This document shows, one piece after another, positions 45,409 to 51,796 of a stretch of DNA of 64,000 nt. Below the pieces are notes generated by a model. It did not search any database. It was given only the letters and a program-made list of their open reading frames with translations, and was not told the DNA's origin. Made by a program: the position numbers and the translations under genes. Each line of letters starts with the position of its first letter. Positions within the stretch are counted from its first letter, which is position 1. Where the stretch lies: contig JANYAS010000079.1 in assembly GCA_025361205.1 (NCBI GenBank), positions 488 to 64,487 of the forward strand, given 5' to 3'. The DNA comes from Holophagaceae bacterium. Its GTDB lineage: Bacteria; Acidobacteriota; Holophagae; Holophagales; Holophagaceae.

Positions 45409-45861
45409 TCATGACCCGCTAAAATCGACTTCGTTGGGAAGCTCATCCTTGTCGGAATCTTTCTGATAGGGGAAGTGCTCGGCCAATCGCTCGCCCAACA
45501 GGGTGATACCTCGCTCAAGCCCTTCGGTGTAATTCAACCGACTGAAATGGTCGGAGAGGCAGGCGACGAGGTCGTTCCAGAAGGCCTGCCCCACCTTGGC
45601 GTGGATGCCTTCGTCCCCGACGACAGCAAAGCGTTTCCGGCTGGGGACCAGGAAGATCAGGATTCCATTGCGATCCTTGGTGGCCTCCATGCCCATGCGG
45701 CGGAAGGCCTTCTGGGCGGTCTTCTGGACATCGCCCACGAAGAAGGGGGCGACGGAAATCCGGATCTCGCCGGAAGTGCTGATTTCGGCCGCCTGGATGG
45801 CACGGACGATTCGTGCTTCATCCAAGTGCTCCCTCAGGCTTTTCTGTGTCATTCCCCACAT
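45409..45861 (-). CDS. TPM domain protein
   Basis: AIQAAEISTSGEIRISV...RNGILIFLV...GDEGIHAKVG...NELP. Confidence 0.85.
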   Translation of the reverse strand: MWGMTQKSLREHLDEARIVRAIQAAEISTSGEIRISVAPFFVGDVQKTAQKAFRRMGMEATKDRNGILIFLVPSRKRFAVVGDEGIHAKVGQAFWNDLVACLSDHFSRLNYTEGLERGITLLGERLAEHFPYQKDSDKDELPNEVDFSGS

Positions 45862-45878
45862 GGAGAATCCCCCTTGTC

Positions 45879-46601
45879 TCACCATGATCCAGAGGCCCCA
45901 CCACCACCGGACCTGCCGCCGCCGCCCGACCATCCGCCGCCGCCGGAACCGCCGCCGCCTCTCCCTCCCGACATGAGGCTGAATAACAGCCCGATGGCCA
46001 GGCTCGGATTCGTGACGATCAGTACCAGCAATCCCAGCGCCATGAAGCCCAGGAGAATCTTTGTGCCGAGGCCCATGGGAGGGCTGCGGGGATGGGAAGA
46101 CGCGTCTTGGCCTCCTGGGGCGCGGGTCTCTCCTCCCAGGGTGCCCAGGATGCGATCCACTCCTGCTGTTGCGGCGCCATCCCAATCGCCCGACTGAAGC
46201 TTCGGCACGATGGCTTCCGACAGGATGCGGGAAGCGATGAGATCCGGCATTTGTCCTTCCAGTCCGTACCCCACCTCAAGGCGGAGCTTGTGGTCCTGGG
46301 TCATGAGGAAGAGCACCAAGCCGTCGTCCAGACCCTTGCGCCCCACCTTCCAAGCAGCAAAGGTGCGCACCGCCCAGTCTTCAATGGGAACGCCCCCGGT
46401 GCTTTCGCCGATCCAGACCAGTACCTGATGCCCCGTCGTCTTTTCGTAGGCGGCCAGACGTCGGTCCAGCGCCACACGCGTTTCGAGGGAGAGTACGTGC
46501 GGTCCATCGGTCACCCATCGCTGGGGTGGGGGCACGGCCGTCTGAGCCCTCAGACCAGACTGGAGCAGGAGCCACAGCAGAAGGGCGACAAATTTGGGCA
46601 T
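45879..46601 (-). CDS. TPM domain protein (YgcG-like) with Gly-rich tail
   Basis: WVTDGPHVLS, WKVGRKGLDDGLV, RLEVGYGLEG, GGGRSGGGGASGSW. Confidence 0.88.
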   Translation of the reverse strand: MPKFVALLLWLLLQSGLRAQTAVPPPQRWVTDGPHVLSLETRVALDRRLAAYEKTTGHQVLVWIGESTGGVPIEDWAVRTFAAWKVGRKGLDDGLVLFLMTQDHKLRLEVGYGLEGQMPDLIASRILSEAIVPKLQSGDWDGAATAGVDRILGTLGGETRAPGGQDASSHPRSPPMGLGTKILLGFMALGLLVLIVTNPSLAIGLLFSLMSGGRGGGGSGGGGWSGGGGRSGGGGASGSW

Positions 46602-46603
46602 GT

Positions 46604-47215
46604 TCAGAACTTGACTTTGGGAGCCTGTTCAGCCCCGGCCTGGGCTTTGAAGTAGGTCTTCTCCTTGAACCGATCGCCAAAGAAGGAAGCGATGAGCATG
46701 GTCGGGAAGCTGTTGCGCTTGGTGTTGAAAGCCTGGGCCGCCTCGTTGAAGCGCATCCGCTCCACGGCAATGCGATTCTCAGTGCCCTCCAACTGGACCT
46801 GGAGATCCCTGAAATTCTGGGTGGCCTTCAGGTCGGGGTATTTTTCCACCACCACCATTAGGCGGGAGAGGGCTGATCCGAGTCCCTGTTGTGCCTCCTG
46901 GAATCGCGCCATGGCAGCCGGGTCCTGGGTGGGCTTCACCCCAGCCGTCACTTGACCGACCTTGGCTCGCGCTTCCGTAACGGCGGTGAAGGTGTCCTTC
47001 TCGAAGGCTGCGGCGCCCTTGACGGTCTCCACCAAGTTTGGTACCAGGTCCAGGCGGCGCTGATAGACATTCTCGACTTGGCCCCATTTGGCCTCAACGG
47101 CCTGATTCAGACTGTTCAAGGAGTTGTAGGAACCCACAGTGGCCAAGCCCAGAAAGAGCACGACCAGTAGGAATAGTCCCCCACAACCCAAGGCAATCTT
47201 GCTTCCAGTTCCCAT
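46604..47215 (-). CDS. lemA: LemA family protein
   Basis: YQRRLDLVPNLVETVKG, YPDLKATQNF, LEGTENRIAVER; ATG 47215 behind GGAGG. Confidence 0.93.
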   Translation of the reverse strand: MGTGSKIALGCGGLFLLVVLFLGLATVGSYNSLNSLNQAVEAKWGQVENVYQRRLDLVPNLVETVKGAAAFEKDTFTAVTEARAKVGQVTAGVKPTQDPAAMARFQEAQQGLGSALSRLMVVVEKYPDLKATQNFRDLQVQLEGTENRIAVERMRFNEAAQAFNTKRNSFPTMLIASFFGDRFKEKTYFKAQAGAEQAPKVKF

Positions 47216-47532
47216 GGACCCTCCTTGGTCTTCAGTGTAAGGATGATGGCCTTGGTTGGAGCAAGAAACCAAAAAAGGAATGGAAAGCACGAATAGAAGT
47301 CAAACCGTTGGTTCGACCAAGCCAATGCCCTTGATGGGCATCAACGAGAATATCTCCCGATGCTCTGGTGGACCTTTGGGCATTCGAGGCCTCGTACACC
47401 TTGGCGAACGACGCGACGAACTTGACGCCCAGGATCTTCCCGACGGATGACTTCGATCTTCAAACTGATGGAATCAGTAGCTCATTCTGATTGAGCCCCC
47501 CATCGATGGAGAAGGGTAATTAATCATAAATA

Positions 47533-47575
47533 TAATGCAATAAATAACATAATCATTGGATCAAATATTGCATTA
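47533..47575. promoter_or_regulatory. AT-rich inverted repeat, candidate operator of the SOD-encapsulin operon
   Basis: TAATGCAATA-N23-TATTGCATTA, with ATAATCATT (Fur-box half) inside. Confidence 0.45.
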
Positions 47576-47629
47576 AGGCCTCCACGTAGATAGCGCATGG
47601 CCCCGATCATCTACCAAGGGAGGAAGTTC

Positions 47630-48244
47630 ATGGCCTACGAGCCCAAGAATTACGATCACCTGAAGGGGGGCGCACTGGATGGATTCAGTGATAGCCAGCT
47701 GGACTTGCACTTCACCCTCTACAAGGGCTACGTGGCGAAGCTCAACGAGATTGAAGAAAAACTGGCTGTGGCCATCAACACCAAGCCCAACTATTCCTTC
47801 AACGAATACAGCGAGTTAAAGCGGCGGGAGGCCGTGGCTTTCAATGGATCCTTCCTCCACGAACGCTACTTCGAGAACCTGGGGAAAGATGCCGCCATCA
47901 GCTCTGGCCTCCAGAAGGCTTTGGACGGGCAGGGGGGCAAGGTCAACATCTTGGCCGATCTAAAGGCCGCAGCCCTCAGCGGCCCGGGCTGGGCACTGCT
48001 CACCCTCAATCGGCGGGACGGTAGGCTCCACTCCTATTTTGTGGCGGAGCATCACATAGGCATGCCTATCGACCAGGATCTGCTCCTGGTCCTGGATAGC
48101 TGGGAGCACGCCTTCATGGTGGATTTCGGCATCAAACGCCCAGCCTACATCGACGCTTTCTTCACCAACATCAAGTGGAGCGAAGTGTCCAAGCGCTGGG
48201 TCGGTTCGAGAACCGGCGGAAGAGAAGGTGATCGCCATGAGTAG
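47630..48244 (+). CDS. sod: Fe/Mn superoxide dismutase family protein (ChrC-like HxxLYxGYV type)
   Basis: LHFTLYKGYV, FNGSFLHERYFENL, LDSWEHAFMVDFG metal ligands. Confidence 0.88.
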   Translation: MAYEPKNYDHLKGGALDGFSDSQLDLHFTLYKGYVAKLNEIEEKLAVAINTKPNYSFNEYSELKRREAVAFNGSFLHERYFENLGKDAAISSGLQKALDGQGGKVNILADLKAAALSGPGWALLTLNRRDGRLHSYFVAEHHIGMPIDQDLLLVLDSWEHAFMVDFGIKRPAYIDAFFTNIKWSEVSKRWVGSRTGGREGDRHE

Positions 48245-48575
48245 CGGATTCATTGAACCTGGGCTTTCTAGCCAAGCATCGAACATCCACCGGGCCCTCA
48301 CCAGCCTGCAGGAGGAACTAGAAGCCATCGACTACTACCACCAGCGGGTGGATGTGTCGGATGACGAGTCCCTAAAGGCCGTTCTGGCCCACAACCGCGA
48401 TGATGAAATGGAACACGCGATGATGTTGATGGAATGGCTTCGCCGCGCCATGCCTGAATTCGATGTCCAGATGAAAAAGCTCCTGTTCACATCTGGTGAC
48501 ATCACCGAACCGGCGGACGGAGTCGAACCCCAAGTGGCAAGTGCAATTGGGCTGGGGCTGGGAAACCTGAAATGA
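48237..48575 (+). CDS. Encapsulin-associated ferritin-like protein (Flp/EncFtn cargo)
   Basis: SLQEELEAIDYYHQR...HNRDDEMEHAMMLMEWLRR; C-terminal cargo-loading peptide GLGLGNLK. Confidence 0.92.
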   Translation: MSSGFIEPGLSSQASNIHRALTSLQEELEAIDYYHQRVDVSDDESLKAVLAHNRDDEMEHAMMLMEWLRRAMPEFDVQMKKLLFTSGDITEPADGVEPQVASAIGLGLGNLK

Positions 48576-48604
48576 ATGGGGCACTGGCCCGGGGAGATAC
48601 GGTC

Positions 48605-49426
48605 ATGAAAGACATACTCAGGCGCGACATGGCACCCATCGTGGAGGGGGCCTGGAAGGAAATCGATCTGCAAAGTGCTCGCATCCTCAAGGGAAACCTT
48701 TCTGGGCGGAAACTGGTGGATTTTTCTGGACCTCACGGTTGGCAGTTCGCGGCCCTCAACCTCGGGAGGCTGGAGGTGGGACCCGGGGAGGGCAAGGACG
48801 GAGTGACCTGGGGGCTGCATAAGGTCCAACCTCTGGTAGAAGTTCGAGTCCCTTTTACCCTGGGTCTCTGGGACCTAGATGACGTGGCGCGGGGGGCGAA
48901 GAACCCGAACCTGGACGCATTGAAGGAGGCTGCGCGCAAGGTGGCAATCTTCGAGGAAACGGCCATTTATCGGGGGTTGGGAGGGGCGGGCATCCTGGGA
49001 ATGCTCGAAGGCTCCGGTCATGCTCCCGTGCCTTTGGGCCCCGACCTGAGCAAGCTCACCGAGTCATTGGAATTGGCCCTGCTTGCGATTCAGGAGGCCG
49101 AGATCGGTGGACCCTTTGCGCTAGTGCTAGGAACGCTGCCGTATAAGTGGCTGATGGTTGGGGACCCGAATGCCTACCCGCTGCGAAACCGGGTCGAAGC
49201 CATGTTTTCAGGCGGAATCCATTGGAGTCCTGTTCTGGAAGGAGGGGCTGTGCTATCGCTCCGAGGTGGAGATTTCGAGATGACTGTGGGCCAAGATCTG
49301 AGCATCGGATACAAAATGCACGACGCGAGAAATGTCGAGTTGTACTTTACCGAATCATTCACCTTCCACGTGCTTGAACCCGCGGCAGCCGTGGAGTTGA
49401 AACCGCAGGATCTCTTGAAACAATAG
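48605..49426 (+). CDS. Family 1 encapsulin shell protein
   Basis: LRRDMAPI..AWKEID, GRKLVDFSGPHGW, GGDFEMTVGQDLSIGY, LYFTESFTF. Confidence 0.95.
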   Translation: MKDILRRDMAPIVEGAWKEIDLQSARILKGNLSGRKLVDFSGPHGWQFAALNLGRLEVGPGEGKDGVTWGLHKVQPLVEVRVPFTLGLWDLDDVARGAKNPNLDALKEAARKVAIFEETAIYRGLGGAGILGMLEGSGHAPVPLGPDLSKLTESLELALLAIQEAEIGGPFALVLGTLPYKWLMVGDPNAYPLRNRVEAMFSGGIHWSPVLEGGAVLSLRGGDFEMTVGQDLSIGYKMHDARNVELYFTESFTFHVLEPAAAVELKPQDLLKQ

Positions 49427-49466
49427 GTCCAGCCTTGCGGACCCGATCTTCGAGAAGGACCGCCCC

Positions 49467-51029
49467 ATGAGTGAACATGCCGACACCAGCGGGTTGGACT
49501 TCGCGAAGGATGGAATCGCCTTTTCAGAGCTCGAAGACGGAAAACCGATCGCCGGGCAGGCGAACGGTGACGCGCTGCTCATCATACGTCGGGGTGAGGC
49601 CTGCTTCGCGGTCGGCGCCACTTGCACGCATTACGGTGGACCCCTCGTCGACGGCATCGTCGAGGGTGATACGATCCGTTGCCCATGGCATCATGCTCGC
49701 TTCGCGCTCGCGACCGGCGAAGCTAACGGACCTCCAGCGCTGGACGCGATTCCCTGCTTCCAGGTTGAGCGGAGGGGTGACCGGGTTTTCGTGCTCGGCC
49801 GTGCGAAGCTGGTAGGGAACGCACCTGGTGGCAACCCGCAGCGATCGCTATCTGGCGGTCCGCAATCGATCGCGATCGTGGGAGGAGGTCCCGCAGGGAC
49901 CGCGGCGGCAGAAATGTTGCGGCGCGAAGGCTACGAAGGGCCCATCACGTTCTTCGCGCCAGAAGCGTCATCACCGGTGGACCGGCCCAACCTATCAAAG
50001 GACTATCTTGCCGGGAGTGCAGCCGAAGAATTAATCCCACTGAGACCGCCGGAACACTTCGCCGAACACCGCATCGATCTGCGCCGCGAGACCGTCCTGG
50101 CACTGGAAGGGAAATCGCTGGTCCTCAAGGGCGGTTCGGAGGCGTTCGACGCGATCTTGCTCGCAACGGGTGCGGCGCCGGTCCGTTTAGAGATACCGGG
50201 TGCGGAGCATGCCCACTTGCTTCGCACGCTCGCCGATAGCCACGCAATCATTGCGAATGCGAAAGGACCTATTCTCGTGATCGGCTCCTCGTTCATTGGC
50301 CTCGAGGTAGCAGCGGCATTGATCGCGAGAGGCCTCGAAGTACACGTGGTCGGGCGGGACAAGGTGTTGCTTGAACCAATTCTAGGTCCCGAATTTGGCG
50401 CATTTGTGCAAGAGGTTCACGAGAAGAAGGGGGTTCACTTCCATCTCGGTACCTCCCCAAAGGAGATCGACGCGTATGGGGTGGTGCTCGAGAACGGGCG
50501 CGTCGACGGTAAGCTCGTCATTATGGGCGTCGGTGTCCGCCCCGAGATTGCGCTCGCAGAAAAGGCCGGCATTGCCATCGACCGGGGAATCGTGGTCGAC
50601 GATCAATTCCGCACGAGTGCCCCCGGTGTCTGGGCCGCAGGCGACATTGCCCGCTTCCCCTATCCTTTTACTGAGGAGCGCGTCCGCATCGAGCACTGGG
50701 TTGTGGCCGAGCAGCAGGGACAAGCTGCTGCGCGCAGCATGCTTGGGAAGGGAACCCGCTTCGATCGCGTTCCCTTCTTCTGGAGCGCGCACTACGATGT
50801 CAGCATCGGTTACGTCGGTCATGCCGGGACTTGGGATCGAATCGATATCGCGGGTAATTTCGCACGGCGCGATGTGGCTGTCGCGTACCGCCGTGGCGGA
50901 CAAACCCTTGCGGTGGCCGCCATCGGACGTGACGAACTGTTACTCCGGGCCGAAGCAGCGATCGAACGGGGAGATGAAGCGACACTCACGCGATTGATCC
51001 CACCCAGCGCCACCGATGGAAGACCATGA
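49467..51029 (+). CDS. Rieske [2Fe-2S] + FAD/NAD(P)H oxidoreductase fusion
   Basis: CTHYGGPL...CPWH Rieske ligands; IVGGGPAG, ILLATGA, VIGSSFIGLE, WAAGDIA, VPFFWS. Confidence 0.92.
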   Translation: MSEHADTSGLDFAKDGIAFSELEDGKPIAGQANGDALLIIRRGEACFAVGATCTHYGGPLVDGIVEGDTIRCPWHHARFALATGEANGPPALDAIPCFQVERRGDRVFVLGRAKLVGNAPGGNPQRSLSGGPQSIAIVGGGPAGTAAAEMLRREGYEGPITFFAPEASSPVDRPNLSKDYLAGSAAEELIPLRPPEHFAEHRIDLRRETVLALEGKSLVLKGGSEAFDAILLATGAAPVRLEIPGAEHAHLLRTLADSHAIIANAKGPILVIGSSFIGLEVAAALIARGLEVHVVGRDKVLLEPILGPEFGAFVQEVHEKKGVHFHLGTSPKEIDAYGVVLENGRVDGKLVIMGVGVRPEIALAEKAGIAIDRGIVVDDQFRTSAPGVWAAGDIARFPYPFTEERVRIEHWVVAEQQGQAAARSMLGKGTRFDRVPFFWSAHYDVSIGYVGHAGTWDRIDIAGNFARRDVAVAYRRGGQTLAVAAIGRDELLLRAEAAIERGDEATLTRLIPPSATDGRP

Positions 51030-51796
51030 GCGACGTTCCCTGCATCAAGACTCTGACCGCAGTGCCGACGCTGGATGACCTCGTCGCGCGTGATCGTGAT
51101 CATGACTGCGAGGGCTTTGGCAAACATCATATCTGCGTAAAGGTGGAGGCGGTCGCCGACCTACCCACACGCTTTGGTCACTTCCGCATCGTCGCCTTCT
51201 ACAACAATCGGGATGGAAAGGAGCATGTCGCGATCGTTCATGGTGACGTACTCGGCGGTCAAGAGGTCGTTACACGCCTGCACTCCGAGTGCCTGACTGG
51301 CGACGCGCTCGGATCCCTCCGATGCGACTGCCGCGACCAACTCGGTGTCGCGCTCACCCGCATCGCCCAGGAGCCCTGCGGTGTGCTCCTTTATCTGCGC
51401 CAGGAAGGTCGCGGTATCGGACTCTTGAACAAGATCCGAGCCTATGCCCTTCAGGATGGTGGGCTCGATACCGTAGATGCGAATCTGGCCCTGGGATTTC
51501 GCGATGACGAGCGCGACTACGCCATTGCTGCGCACATGCTCGCGAGTCTTACCGTGAAATCGATCCGCCTCCTCACCAATAACCCACGCAAGGTCGAGGA
51601 GCTTGTGCGCTATGGGATCGAGGTCCGTGAGCGCCTTCCGCATGTCATTCCGGCAAACGAATTCAACCTTTTCTACCTCGAAACCAAGGCTCATCGCTCG
51701 GGGCACTTCATCGATTTCGAGGGCAAGCCGCATGTCGCGGAACAGGACGAGCCCATCGTGGTCACCCCATCGACAAACTCGCCGGTCCAACCATGA
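51026..51796 (+). CDS. ribA: GTP cyclohydrolase II, second copy
   Basis: TRLHSECLTGDALGSLRCDCRDQL, YLRQEGRGIGL, LLTNNPRK; ATGA overlap with upstream gene. Confidence 0.93.
   Translation: MSDVPCIKTLTAVPTLDDLVARDRDHDCEGFGKHHICVKVEAVADLPTRFGHFRIVAFYNNRDGKEHVAIVHGDVLGGQEVVTRLHSECLTGDALGSLRCDCRDQLGVALTRIAQEPCGVLLYLRQEGRGIGLLNKIRAYALQDGGLDTVDANLALGFRDDERDYAIAAHMLASLTVKSIRLLTNNPRKVEELVRYGIEVRERLPHVIPANEFNLFYLETKAHRSGHFIDFEGKPHVAEQDEPIVVTPSTNSPVQP

Follow-up and report, generated by a model that had tools for sequence, protein, structure and literature searches.

Among the described systems closest to the locus considered here, the classical encapsulated ferritin (EncFtn, or Flp) systems of Rhodospirillum rubrum, Haliangium ochraceum and Thermotoga maritima combine a two-helix EncFtn carrying Glu/Glu/His ferroxidase residues with a gene order in which the cargo gene, encoding a targeting peptide, lies immediately upstream of the gene for a shell protein of about 270 amino acids with the HK97 fold. 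Iron-storage encapsulin operons may also carry a conserved extra redox protein, as do the IMEF operons of Firmicutes with their 2Fe-2S ferredoxin (PMC8346489). In Myxococcus xanthus, the EncA-EncBCD system likewise ties encapsulated ferritin-like cargo to oxidative-stress protection (McHugh 2014, as related in PMC7762939). The subject of the present analysis is an operon in a stretch of 64,000 nucleotides from a Holophagaceae bacterium (GenBank assembly GCA_025361205.1, contig JANYAS010000079.1, positions 488 to 64,487 of the forward strand; hereafter, the window), which shares these features of the classical EncFtn systems, its best solved matches among them being 7ODW/7OE2, 5DA5 and 3DKT, and differs from them in a conserved third gene, for a superoxide dismutase (SOD), that overlaps the 5' end of the cargo gene. 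The M. xanthus system differs from it by building a T=3 shell, by drawing on several cargos partly encoded elsewhere and by an operon without SOD. We read the locus as one three-gene, Holophagaceae-specific operon, in which an extra, non-encapsulated SOD paralog stands ahead of an ordinary Family 1 EncFtn encapsulin, and whose products would act in a joint defence against superoxide and iron; the probability of this reading is put at roughly 0.6.

The three-gene layout had been described in a first-pass annotation made from the sequence alone, and it checks out exactly at the nucleotide level in the window sequence:

47618..47623, plus strand: Shine-Dalgarno sequence GGGAGG before the SOD gene (direct sequence reading)
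47630..48244, plus strand: divergent Fe/Mn-family SOD paralog, 204 amino acids, ATG at 47630, stop TAG at 48242-48244, with a variable C-terminal tail of 13-15 amino acids
48237..48575, plus strand: encapsulated ferritin (EncFtn/Flp cargo), 112 amino acids (PF22277, ferroxidase residues)
48549..48572, plus strand: cargo-loading (C-terminal targeting) peptide GLGLGNLK of EncFtn (direct sequence reading)
48605..49426, plus strand: Family 1 encapsulin shell protein, 273 amino acids (PF04454, NF041155, PDB 7ODW)
49427..49444, plus strand: inverted repeat GGTCC-N8-GGACC directly past the shell stop, a weak hairpin with no T-run

The ends of the open reading frames bear out the 8-nucleotide overlap that had been claimed between the SOD and Flp genes, the EncFtn ATG at 48237 sitting within the ...CAT GAG TAG of the SOD end. 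The shell gene begins 29 nucleotides past the EncFtn stop, as had also been noted, with the ribosome-binding site GGGGAG; an alternative longer reading frame from 48572 is present, and the homologues begin at MKDILRR, matching ATG 48605. The claim of an intact ferroxidase motif together with the GLGLGNLK peptide equally stands, the one by alignment and the other by the end of the sequence, as E27, Y34, E57 and H60 of EncFtn align with the ferroxidase residues of 5DA5 (R. rubrum), 7OE2 (H. ochraceum) and 3K6C, and homologous EncFtn genes share a G-L-G-L-G-x-(L/M)-K ending. EncFtn matches PF22277 at 122.7 bits and TIGR04535 at 124.6 bits, the latter marginally below its cutoff of 125. The shell protein scores 257 bits against PF04454 (Linocin_M18; cutoff 24.3) and 264 bits against NF041155 (encap_f1; cutoff 100), and matches PDB 7ODW at E 2e-67, its nearest solved relatives being the T=1 shells of H. 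ochraceum and T. maritima. By these matches, the pair is a predicted Family 1 encapsulin system with EncFtn cargo that is otherwise ordinary.

Among solved and characterised proteins, Aquifex pyrophilus Fe-SOD (1COJ; E 6e-36, 42% identity) stands closest to the product of the first gene of the operon. The C-terminal domain of this product passes the Pfam cutoff (Sod_Fe_C, 62.2 bits; cutoff 20.9). Its AlphaFold2 model (mean predicted local distance difference test score, pLDDT, 84.8) contains the two-domain SOD fold, an alpha-hairpin N-domain followed by an alpha/beta C-domain, and a Foldseek search with this model gave a template-modelling (TM) score of 0.85 to 1COJ and 249 PDB matches at E <= 0.001, with titles such as 1N0N among them, of which the best 50 are all SODs. 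The four metal ligands that had been recognised at first sight, H27, H77, D156 and H160, align with those of 1COJ and 1MA1, and these residues, along with Y34, W158 and E159, are invariant across 26 homologues. The protein also shares with the Aquifex enzyme a His rather than a Gln at the second-sphere position of the C-domain. It differs in helix 1, where Aquifex Fe-SOD keeps His30 (HFEAHYKGY) and the Holophagaceae clade has HFTLYKGY, and in a variable C-terminal tail that is added in the encapsulin-linked paralog. HFTLYKGY-type helices also occur in many cluster representatives of 40-55% identity elsewhere, some of them with signal peptides; the window SOD is predicted to belong to a large SOD subfamily, and dismutase activity is probable.

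Seen from the SOD, the arrangement recurs within one bacterial family. The closest SOD proteins belong to Geothrix, Holophaga, Mesoterricola and Holophagaceae metagenome-assembled genomes (MAGs), and when GTDB was scanned with a single genome for each species, 80 loci emerged, all from Holophagaceae or Holophagales, which were sorted by tblastn with the window proteins, Pfam confirming rubrerythrin, DUF3501 and Dps. In 13 of the 80 loci (12 distinct contigs) the SOD gene precedes that of EncFtn, with or without a shell gene after it; 49 loci hold the SOD in a rubrerythrin-DUF3501-Dps-SOD cluster, 13 have it standing alone, and 5 have upstream sequence too short to classify. The complete triad of SOD, EncFtn and shell is found in 12 GTDB species-level Holophagaceae genomes and in Geothrix edaphica, and the cultured isolates G. 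rubra, G. limicola and G. edaphica all carry it. Gene tables for G. limicola, a groundwater MAG and G. edaphica place the triad among differing neighbours, and the genes flanking it in the window (LemA upstream, a Rieske-FAD reductase and RibA downstream) recur in 0 of 85 other SOD loci; because the flanking genes differ among triad loci, the conserved unit is taken to be exactly three genes.

Within this unit, the stop codon of the SOD gene and the start codon of the EncFtn gene overlap in 10 of the 12 distinct loci, by 4 nucleotides (ATGA) in eight and by 8 or 20 nucleotides in two, the window included, and a gap of 7-8 nucleotides separates them in the remaining two; GGAG is kept at the Shine-Dalgarno position of the SOD gene in every linked locus. 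The linked SODs form one clade, apart from that of locus L011, in a neighbour-joining tree which, like that of the shells discussed below, was built without support values. Their median dN/dS of 0.086 at a dS of about 1 indicates strong purifying selection. Contig titles and locus contexts show at least eight assemblies that hold both a linked SOD and an SOD of the rubrerythrin/Dps cluster, and therefore the linked SOD is best seen as an additional, dedicated paralog. Only about four positions set it apart from the other paralogs, most notably L26 instead of Q26 beside the ligand H27. This residue (window 47705-47707) is Leu in all 12 encapsulin-linked SODs and Gln in 64 of 68 unlinked paralogs, and is the sole paralog-specific change near the metal site. 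What looked like two SOD-EncFtn copies on contig JAUXSE010000042.1 (L014 and L016) proved to be the same 10.5 kb, 100% identical, in the opposite orientations of a palindromic contig, which is probably a product of misassembly; there, SOD and EncFtn are followed by an open reading frame that resembles an alpha/beta-hydrolase by eye, and no shell gene is present.

Several observations weigh against the reading of a joint defence operon, and they concern its conservation, the SOD protein and its transcription. With regard to conservation, the triad was found in only 3 of the approximately 9 named Geothrix species encountered, several others showing the Dps-cluster SOD only. Searching metagenomes with the shell protein yielded 43 loci, of which the 29 with at least 300 nucleotides upstream of EncFtn were assessed: the SOD is present in about 8 of these close encapsulin operons, with two shorter loci adding partial SODs, and absent from about 16-18. 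Two more hold N-terminal remnants only, which correspond to SOD residues 1-66 (L115:89-286) and to residues 1-46 followed by out-of-frame sequence (L116:3377-3652), with EncFtn and shell genes intact in both; they document ongoing loss of the SOD, which is dispensable in these operons. A neighbourhood survey, which the first-pass annotation had named as a check, gives a divided answer, with linkage in the 12 species-level genomes and G. edaphica, and no SOD in roughly half of the encapsulin operons closest to that of the window. In the neighbour-joining tree of the shells, the operons with SOD form a large subclade in which losses are scattered, adjoined by a sister group without SOD, and the SOD is therefore an ancestral yet dispensable accessory of one Holophagaceae encapsulin branch.

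One of the 29 operons carries a different SOD. In locus L120, a canonical SodB-type enzyme with an HHGKHH helix and with both Pfam domains at 110-140 bits is encoded directly upstream of EncFtn and shell (L120:97-2029), and the same arrangement, with a shell 97% identical to that of L120, is found in another sample (L137:128-1967). A non-orthologous SOD has therefore arrived in the same position at least once more, a point in favour of the reading. The canonical SOD is absent from relatives of the L120 shell at 90%, 77%, 75% and 70% identity, and its recruitment, considered as a deep conserved feature, proved to be real but shallow, being confined to L120 and L137; this, too, counts among the points against. 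Three distinct metagenomic proteins of 380-390 amino acids (P0277, P0278 and P0281) have EncFtn fused in frame, N-terminally, to a Family 1 shell whose sequence is 77-85% identical to that of L120, the targeting peptide having degenerated at the junction; judged by appearance they look bacterial (acidobacterial-like), and in the 2021 encapsulin census every Flp-fusion encapsulin is archaeal. Among more distant EncFtn-shell loci, L133 has an AhpC/peroxiredoxin gene divergently upstream (L133:2888-3448), a further oxidative-stress neighbour, and in both L133 and L134 a gene for an AAA_16/nSTAND-type ATPase follows the shell gene.

The frequent secondary losses and the SOD pseudogene remnants beside intact EncFtn and shell genes (L115, L116, L088/89, L092), like the scant divergence of the linked SOD from the housekeeping paralog, are what one would expect if a duplicated SOD had merely been kept for the same stress signal, by plain co-regulation or historical accident and with no mechanistic interplay. 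We regard this as distinctly unlikely, since the triad has outlasted the saturation of synonymous sites at a dN/dS of 0.09, the overlapping start and stop codons have been maintained in most of the distinct loci, a second, non-orthologous SOD was recruited to the same position, and a parallel Dps-SOD cluster exists.

With regard to the protein, the N-terminal Pfam domain of the SOD lies below its cutoff (Sod_Fe_N, 19.9 bits; cutoff 27), and the NCBIfam SodA/SodB equivalogs reach only 36-64 bits, none attaining the cutoffs of 300-363. The second-sphere His30 is replaced by Leu while Tyr34 is kept, so that by alignment the His30/Tyr34 gateway pair of helix 1 is incomplete, and the spacing from the ligand His to Tyr34 is 7 and not 8, owing to a one-residue deletion relative to Aquifex. 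The missing His30, the altered helix-1 spacing and the low profile scores (the best equivalog reaching 64 bits, its cutoff being 300) would suit a metal-binding relative that is not a dismutase and that serves, for example, in iron delivery or handling for the compartment. This is scarcely plausible, however, given that the four metal ligands, Tyr34, Trp158 and Glu159 are all invariant, that the predicted fold superposes on active Fe-SODs, that the H-x3-L-Y-x-G-Y helix is found in a large, widespread subfamily and in the rubrerythrin/Dps-cluster paralog, and that a genuine canonical SOD holds the same operon position in L120 and L137. The loss of His30 is common to the whole Holophagaceae SOD clade, and in MnSOD substitutions of His30 lower the activity and do not abolish it.

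With regard to transcription, the region upstream of the SOD gene measures 339 nucleotides and contains the following candidate elements, which themselves count in favour of the reading:

47458..47494, plus strand: candidate enhancer (upstream activating sequence), an imperfect inverted repeat CTTCAAACTGA-N13-TCATTCTGATTGA, about 60-100 nucleotides upstream of the -24 element
47557..47571, plus strand: candidate sigma-54-type -24/-12 promoter TGGATCAAATATTGC (TGG-N8-TTGC), 73 nucleotides before the SOD ATG

The exact motif TGG-N8-TTGC lies 73-90 nucleotides before the SOD ATG in 6 of the 13 linked loci (all distinct, the window included), and a near variant, TGG-N8-ATGC, in two more, as against 2 of 68 unlinked SODs; it is missing from the remaining 5 linked loci, a point against the reading. 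Taken alone, the motif is common across the window, with 18 matches against 10.5 expected, which is another such point, and the evidence for a promoter therefore resides in its positional conservation. The eight loci with the motif or its near variant are the same loci that share the imperfect inverted repeat, and a block with the consensus CtTCgaaCTGAagGaG...TCA..TTG.T.G is kept in eight orthologous upstream regions which are otherwise unalignable. The repeat stands at the usual position of an activator site, its function being putative. Because the bare motif is common and the window yielded no activator gene, the sigma-54 promoter is graded as a candidate; tblastn within the 64 kb found neither a sigma-54 activator nor a second SOD, Dps or rubrerythrin.

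The overlap of the SOD and EncFtn genes leaves no intergenic space for an EncFtn promoter of its own, and promoters may lie inside the SOD gene. The window sequence matches sediment metagenomes, and a search for RNA runs containing it found none, the matching runs being DNA sediment metagenomes only. An Rfam scan of 47200-49600 gave a single sub-threshold chance match, with no riboswitch or small RNA in the leader, and generic scans for sigma-70 promoters and terminators gave counts no higher than in shuffled sequence. For the GGTCC-N8-GGACC repeat past the shell gene, the terminator scan flagged the minus strand only, and such sites are no commoner than in shuffled sequence. Inspection of the AT-rich segment 47520-47556 for Fur or PerR boxes, by eye only, found no palindrome common to the loci.

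The location of the SOD relative to the shell bears directly on what the operon may do. The linked SODs possess an additional C-terminal tail of 11-20 amino acids (about 13), nearly constant in length, which is missing from the unlinked paralogs. Beyond ...WSEVSKR the sequences vary among homologues (WVGSRTGGREGDRHE, GEAVASDSGRSRS, SAATRHDQAKRQR, GYLPIPGRREEII and others) and are rich in G, R, K and E, and their coding sequence spans the purine-rich ribosome-binding site and the start codon of EncFtn; the compositional bias and the fixed length are explained by the presence of these signals among the tail codons. Comparison of the homologues gave no conserved C-terminal signal and no hydrophobic LxxGxLK-type motif on the SOD, whose N-terminus is the same as that of the unlinked paralogs, in keeping with the initial impression that the SOD has no evident loading peptide. 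As a loading peptide the tail is rejected, being unconserved and accounted for by the EncFtn ribosome-binding site and the overlap. It is probably a by-product of the gene overlap, the SOD being in all likelihood a free cytosolic enzyme that, lacking a loading peptide, most likely works outside the shell.

The near-constant tail of all linked SODs, absent from their unlinked paralogs, and the existence of non-canonical N-terminal signals in the ferredoxins of IMEF systems (PMC8346489) could nevertheless be taken to mean that the SOD is an unconventional cargo, or a shell-bound partner held through its basic tail or through EncFtn, forming a two-enzyme nanoreactor. The comparison with IMEF, however, shows a difference: the ferredoxin there co-purifies with shells and bears a conserved targeting-like motif at its N-terminus, whereas the window SOD carries no conserved signal and in all likelihood stays unencapsulated. 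An association with the shell is extremely unlikely, as the tail has nothing of the G-x-L/I-G-x-L-K type motif borne by the EncFtn of the same operon and is explained by read-through across the EncFtn ribosome-binding site and the ATGA overlap, and as the canonical SOD of L120 and L137 has an ordinary SodB C-terminus and no overlap. Highly improbable, too, is the functional scheme in which an SOD recruited in or onto the encapsulin by a non-canonical signal would turn superoxide into H2O2 to be used at once for the oxidation and mineralisation of Fe2+; if true, this would be the first demonstration of an encapsulin that couples the removal of reactive oxygen species with iron storage.

Under the reading that we prefer, that of a three-gene operon with a free SOD, an activator-dependent, probably sigma-54, promoter upstream of the SOD gene would drive all three genes, and the overlap of the SOD stop with the EncFtn start would cause both proteins to be made together. 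Free in the cytosol, the SOD would remove superoxide, which, left alone, would mobilise the iron of Fe-S clusters and of ferric mineral as Fe2+. EncFtn would oxidise Fe2+ and the shell would sequester the product, and this sequestration would keep Fe2+ away from the H2O2 made by the SOD, so that Fenton chemistry would be blocked. The sequences themselves show the gene identities, the overlap, a triad kept in several species amid differing flanks, the dedicated paralog clade, purifying selection and the lack of a conserved loading peptide; SOD activity, co-transcription, dependence on sigma-54 and physiological synergy are the parts of this scheme that we infer.

The second SOD paralog of the Holophagaceae would repeat the same logic of superoxide and iron in the same genomes, and this duplication supports a combined defence module. 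It is the final gene of the rubrerythrin-DUF3501-Dps-SOD cluster (L051:3333-5579 and 48 other loci, for example L040, L047 and L054), which, like the triad, unites an SOD of the same subfamily with an iron sequestrator of the ferritin superfamily in one co-directional cluster, a pairing that can be likened to Dps/SOD oxidative-stress regulons in general. Unlike the triad, it has the self-assembling mini-ferritin Dps in place of EncFtn and shell, and the SOD gene comes last in the cluster and first in the triad. The sigma-54-type motif belongs to the triad only, TGG-N8-TTGC being found upstream of the rubrerythrin gene in 0 of 43 cluster loci, which rules out a regulon of this kind common to the two. 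A gene for a sigma-54-type activator lies divergently upstream of the cluster in about 10 loci.

A closer coupling had been proposed in the first-pass annotation, namely a relay in which H2O2 made by the SOD just outside the shell would serve the encapsulated ferroxidase as the oxidant of Fe2+. All the evidence for linkage of the triad applies to it equally, and the adjacency of the other SOD paralog to Dps in the same genomes is a local precedent for pairing an SOD with an H2O2-using ferritin, Dps being a mini-ferritin that prefers H2O2 as oxidant. The premise that the ferroxidase uses H2O2 is not established for EncFtn, as a 2020 review leaves its preferred substrate undecided between O2 and H2O2 (PMC7762939), and the relay would therefore be conjecture throughout. 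A 2025 review lists EncFtn models that release H2O2 or water and none that consumes H2O2 (PMC12746231), nothing in the sequence places the SOD near the shell, and many sister operons function without SOD; we therefore consider the relay unlikely, though not negligibly so, and retain a free SOD working alongside iron sequestration as the preferred account.

The genes on either side of the triad in the window are as follows:

45409-47290, minus strand: LemA gene, then two genes with TPM domains, of which the second encodes a Gly-rich C-terminus, divergent from the operon
49467-51029, plus strand: fusion protein of 520 amino acids (Pfam), a Rieske [2Fe-2S] domain joined to an FAD/NAD(P)H module of the ferredoxin-reductase type, 40 nucleotides after the shell gene
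51026-51796, plus strand: GTP cyclohydrolase II RibA, for flavin synthesis (Pfam), with a 4-nucleotide overlap with the Rieske-FAD gene

The LemA-TPM-TPM genes are a common membrane-associated trio unrelated to the encapsulin operon. The Rieske-FAD reductase and RibA may be co-transcribed with the triad, and a role in the reductive release of iron from the compartment is conceivable; as members of the conserved unit they were rejected, being absent from every other linked locus.

Each component of the triad is individually ordinary, and the new element is the conserved, overlapping SOD accessory gene with its dedicated paralog clade, an arrangement that appears to be unreported. The 2021 census describes no SOD accessory gene for Flp operons and does not mention superoxide in its text; in the portion of its supplement that was available, the SOD entries listed lie 7-8 genes from DyP operons, and the absence there of Geothrix, Holophaga or Acidobacteria entries is weak evidence of absence. 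In a full-text search on encapsulin and superoxide dismutase, none of the 25 listed matches out of 29 reports, by title or abstract, an SOD in an EncFtn operon, and no paper combining encapsulin with Geothrix was found; the first-pass annotation had likewise been unaware of SOD as a standard member of Family 1 Flp operons.

The triad touches on two debated questions, whether EncFtn encapsulins serve as iron stores or as oxidative-stress devices, and which oxidant their ferroxidase uses. The scope is limited, as only a single bacterial family has the arrangement, which is often lost. Within that family, the conserved coupled SOD is genomic evidence for use of the compartment against superoxide and iron toxicity in acidobacteria that are mostly anaerobic and iron-cycling, and the parallel Dps-SOD cluster points to the same role. 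Cultured Geothrix with the triad, set against named species with the Dps-cluster SOD only, provide a natural comparison, and these cultured carriers make both the role of EncFtn and the choice between O2 and H2O2 approachable with a native SOD partner.

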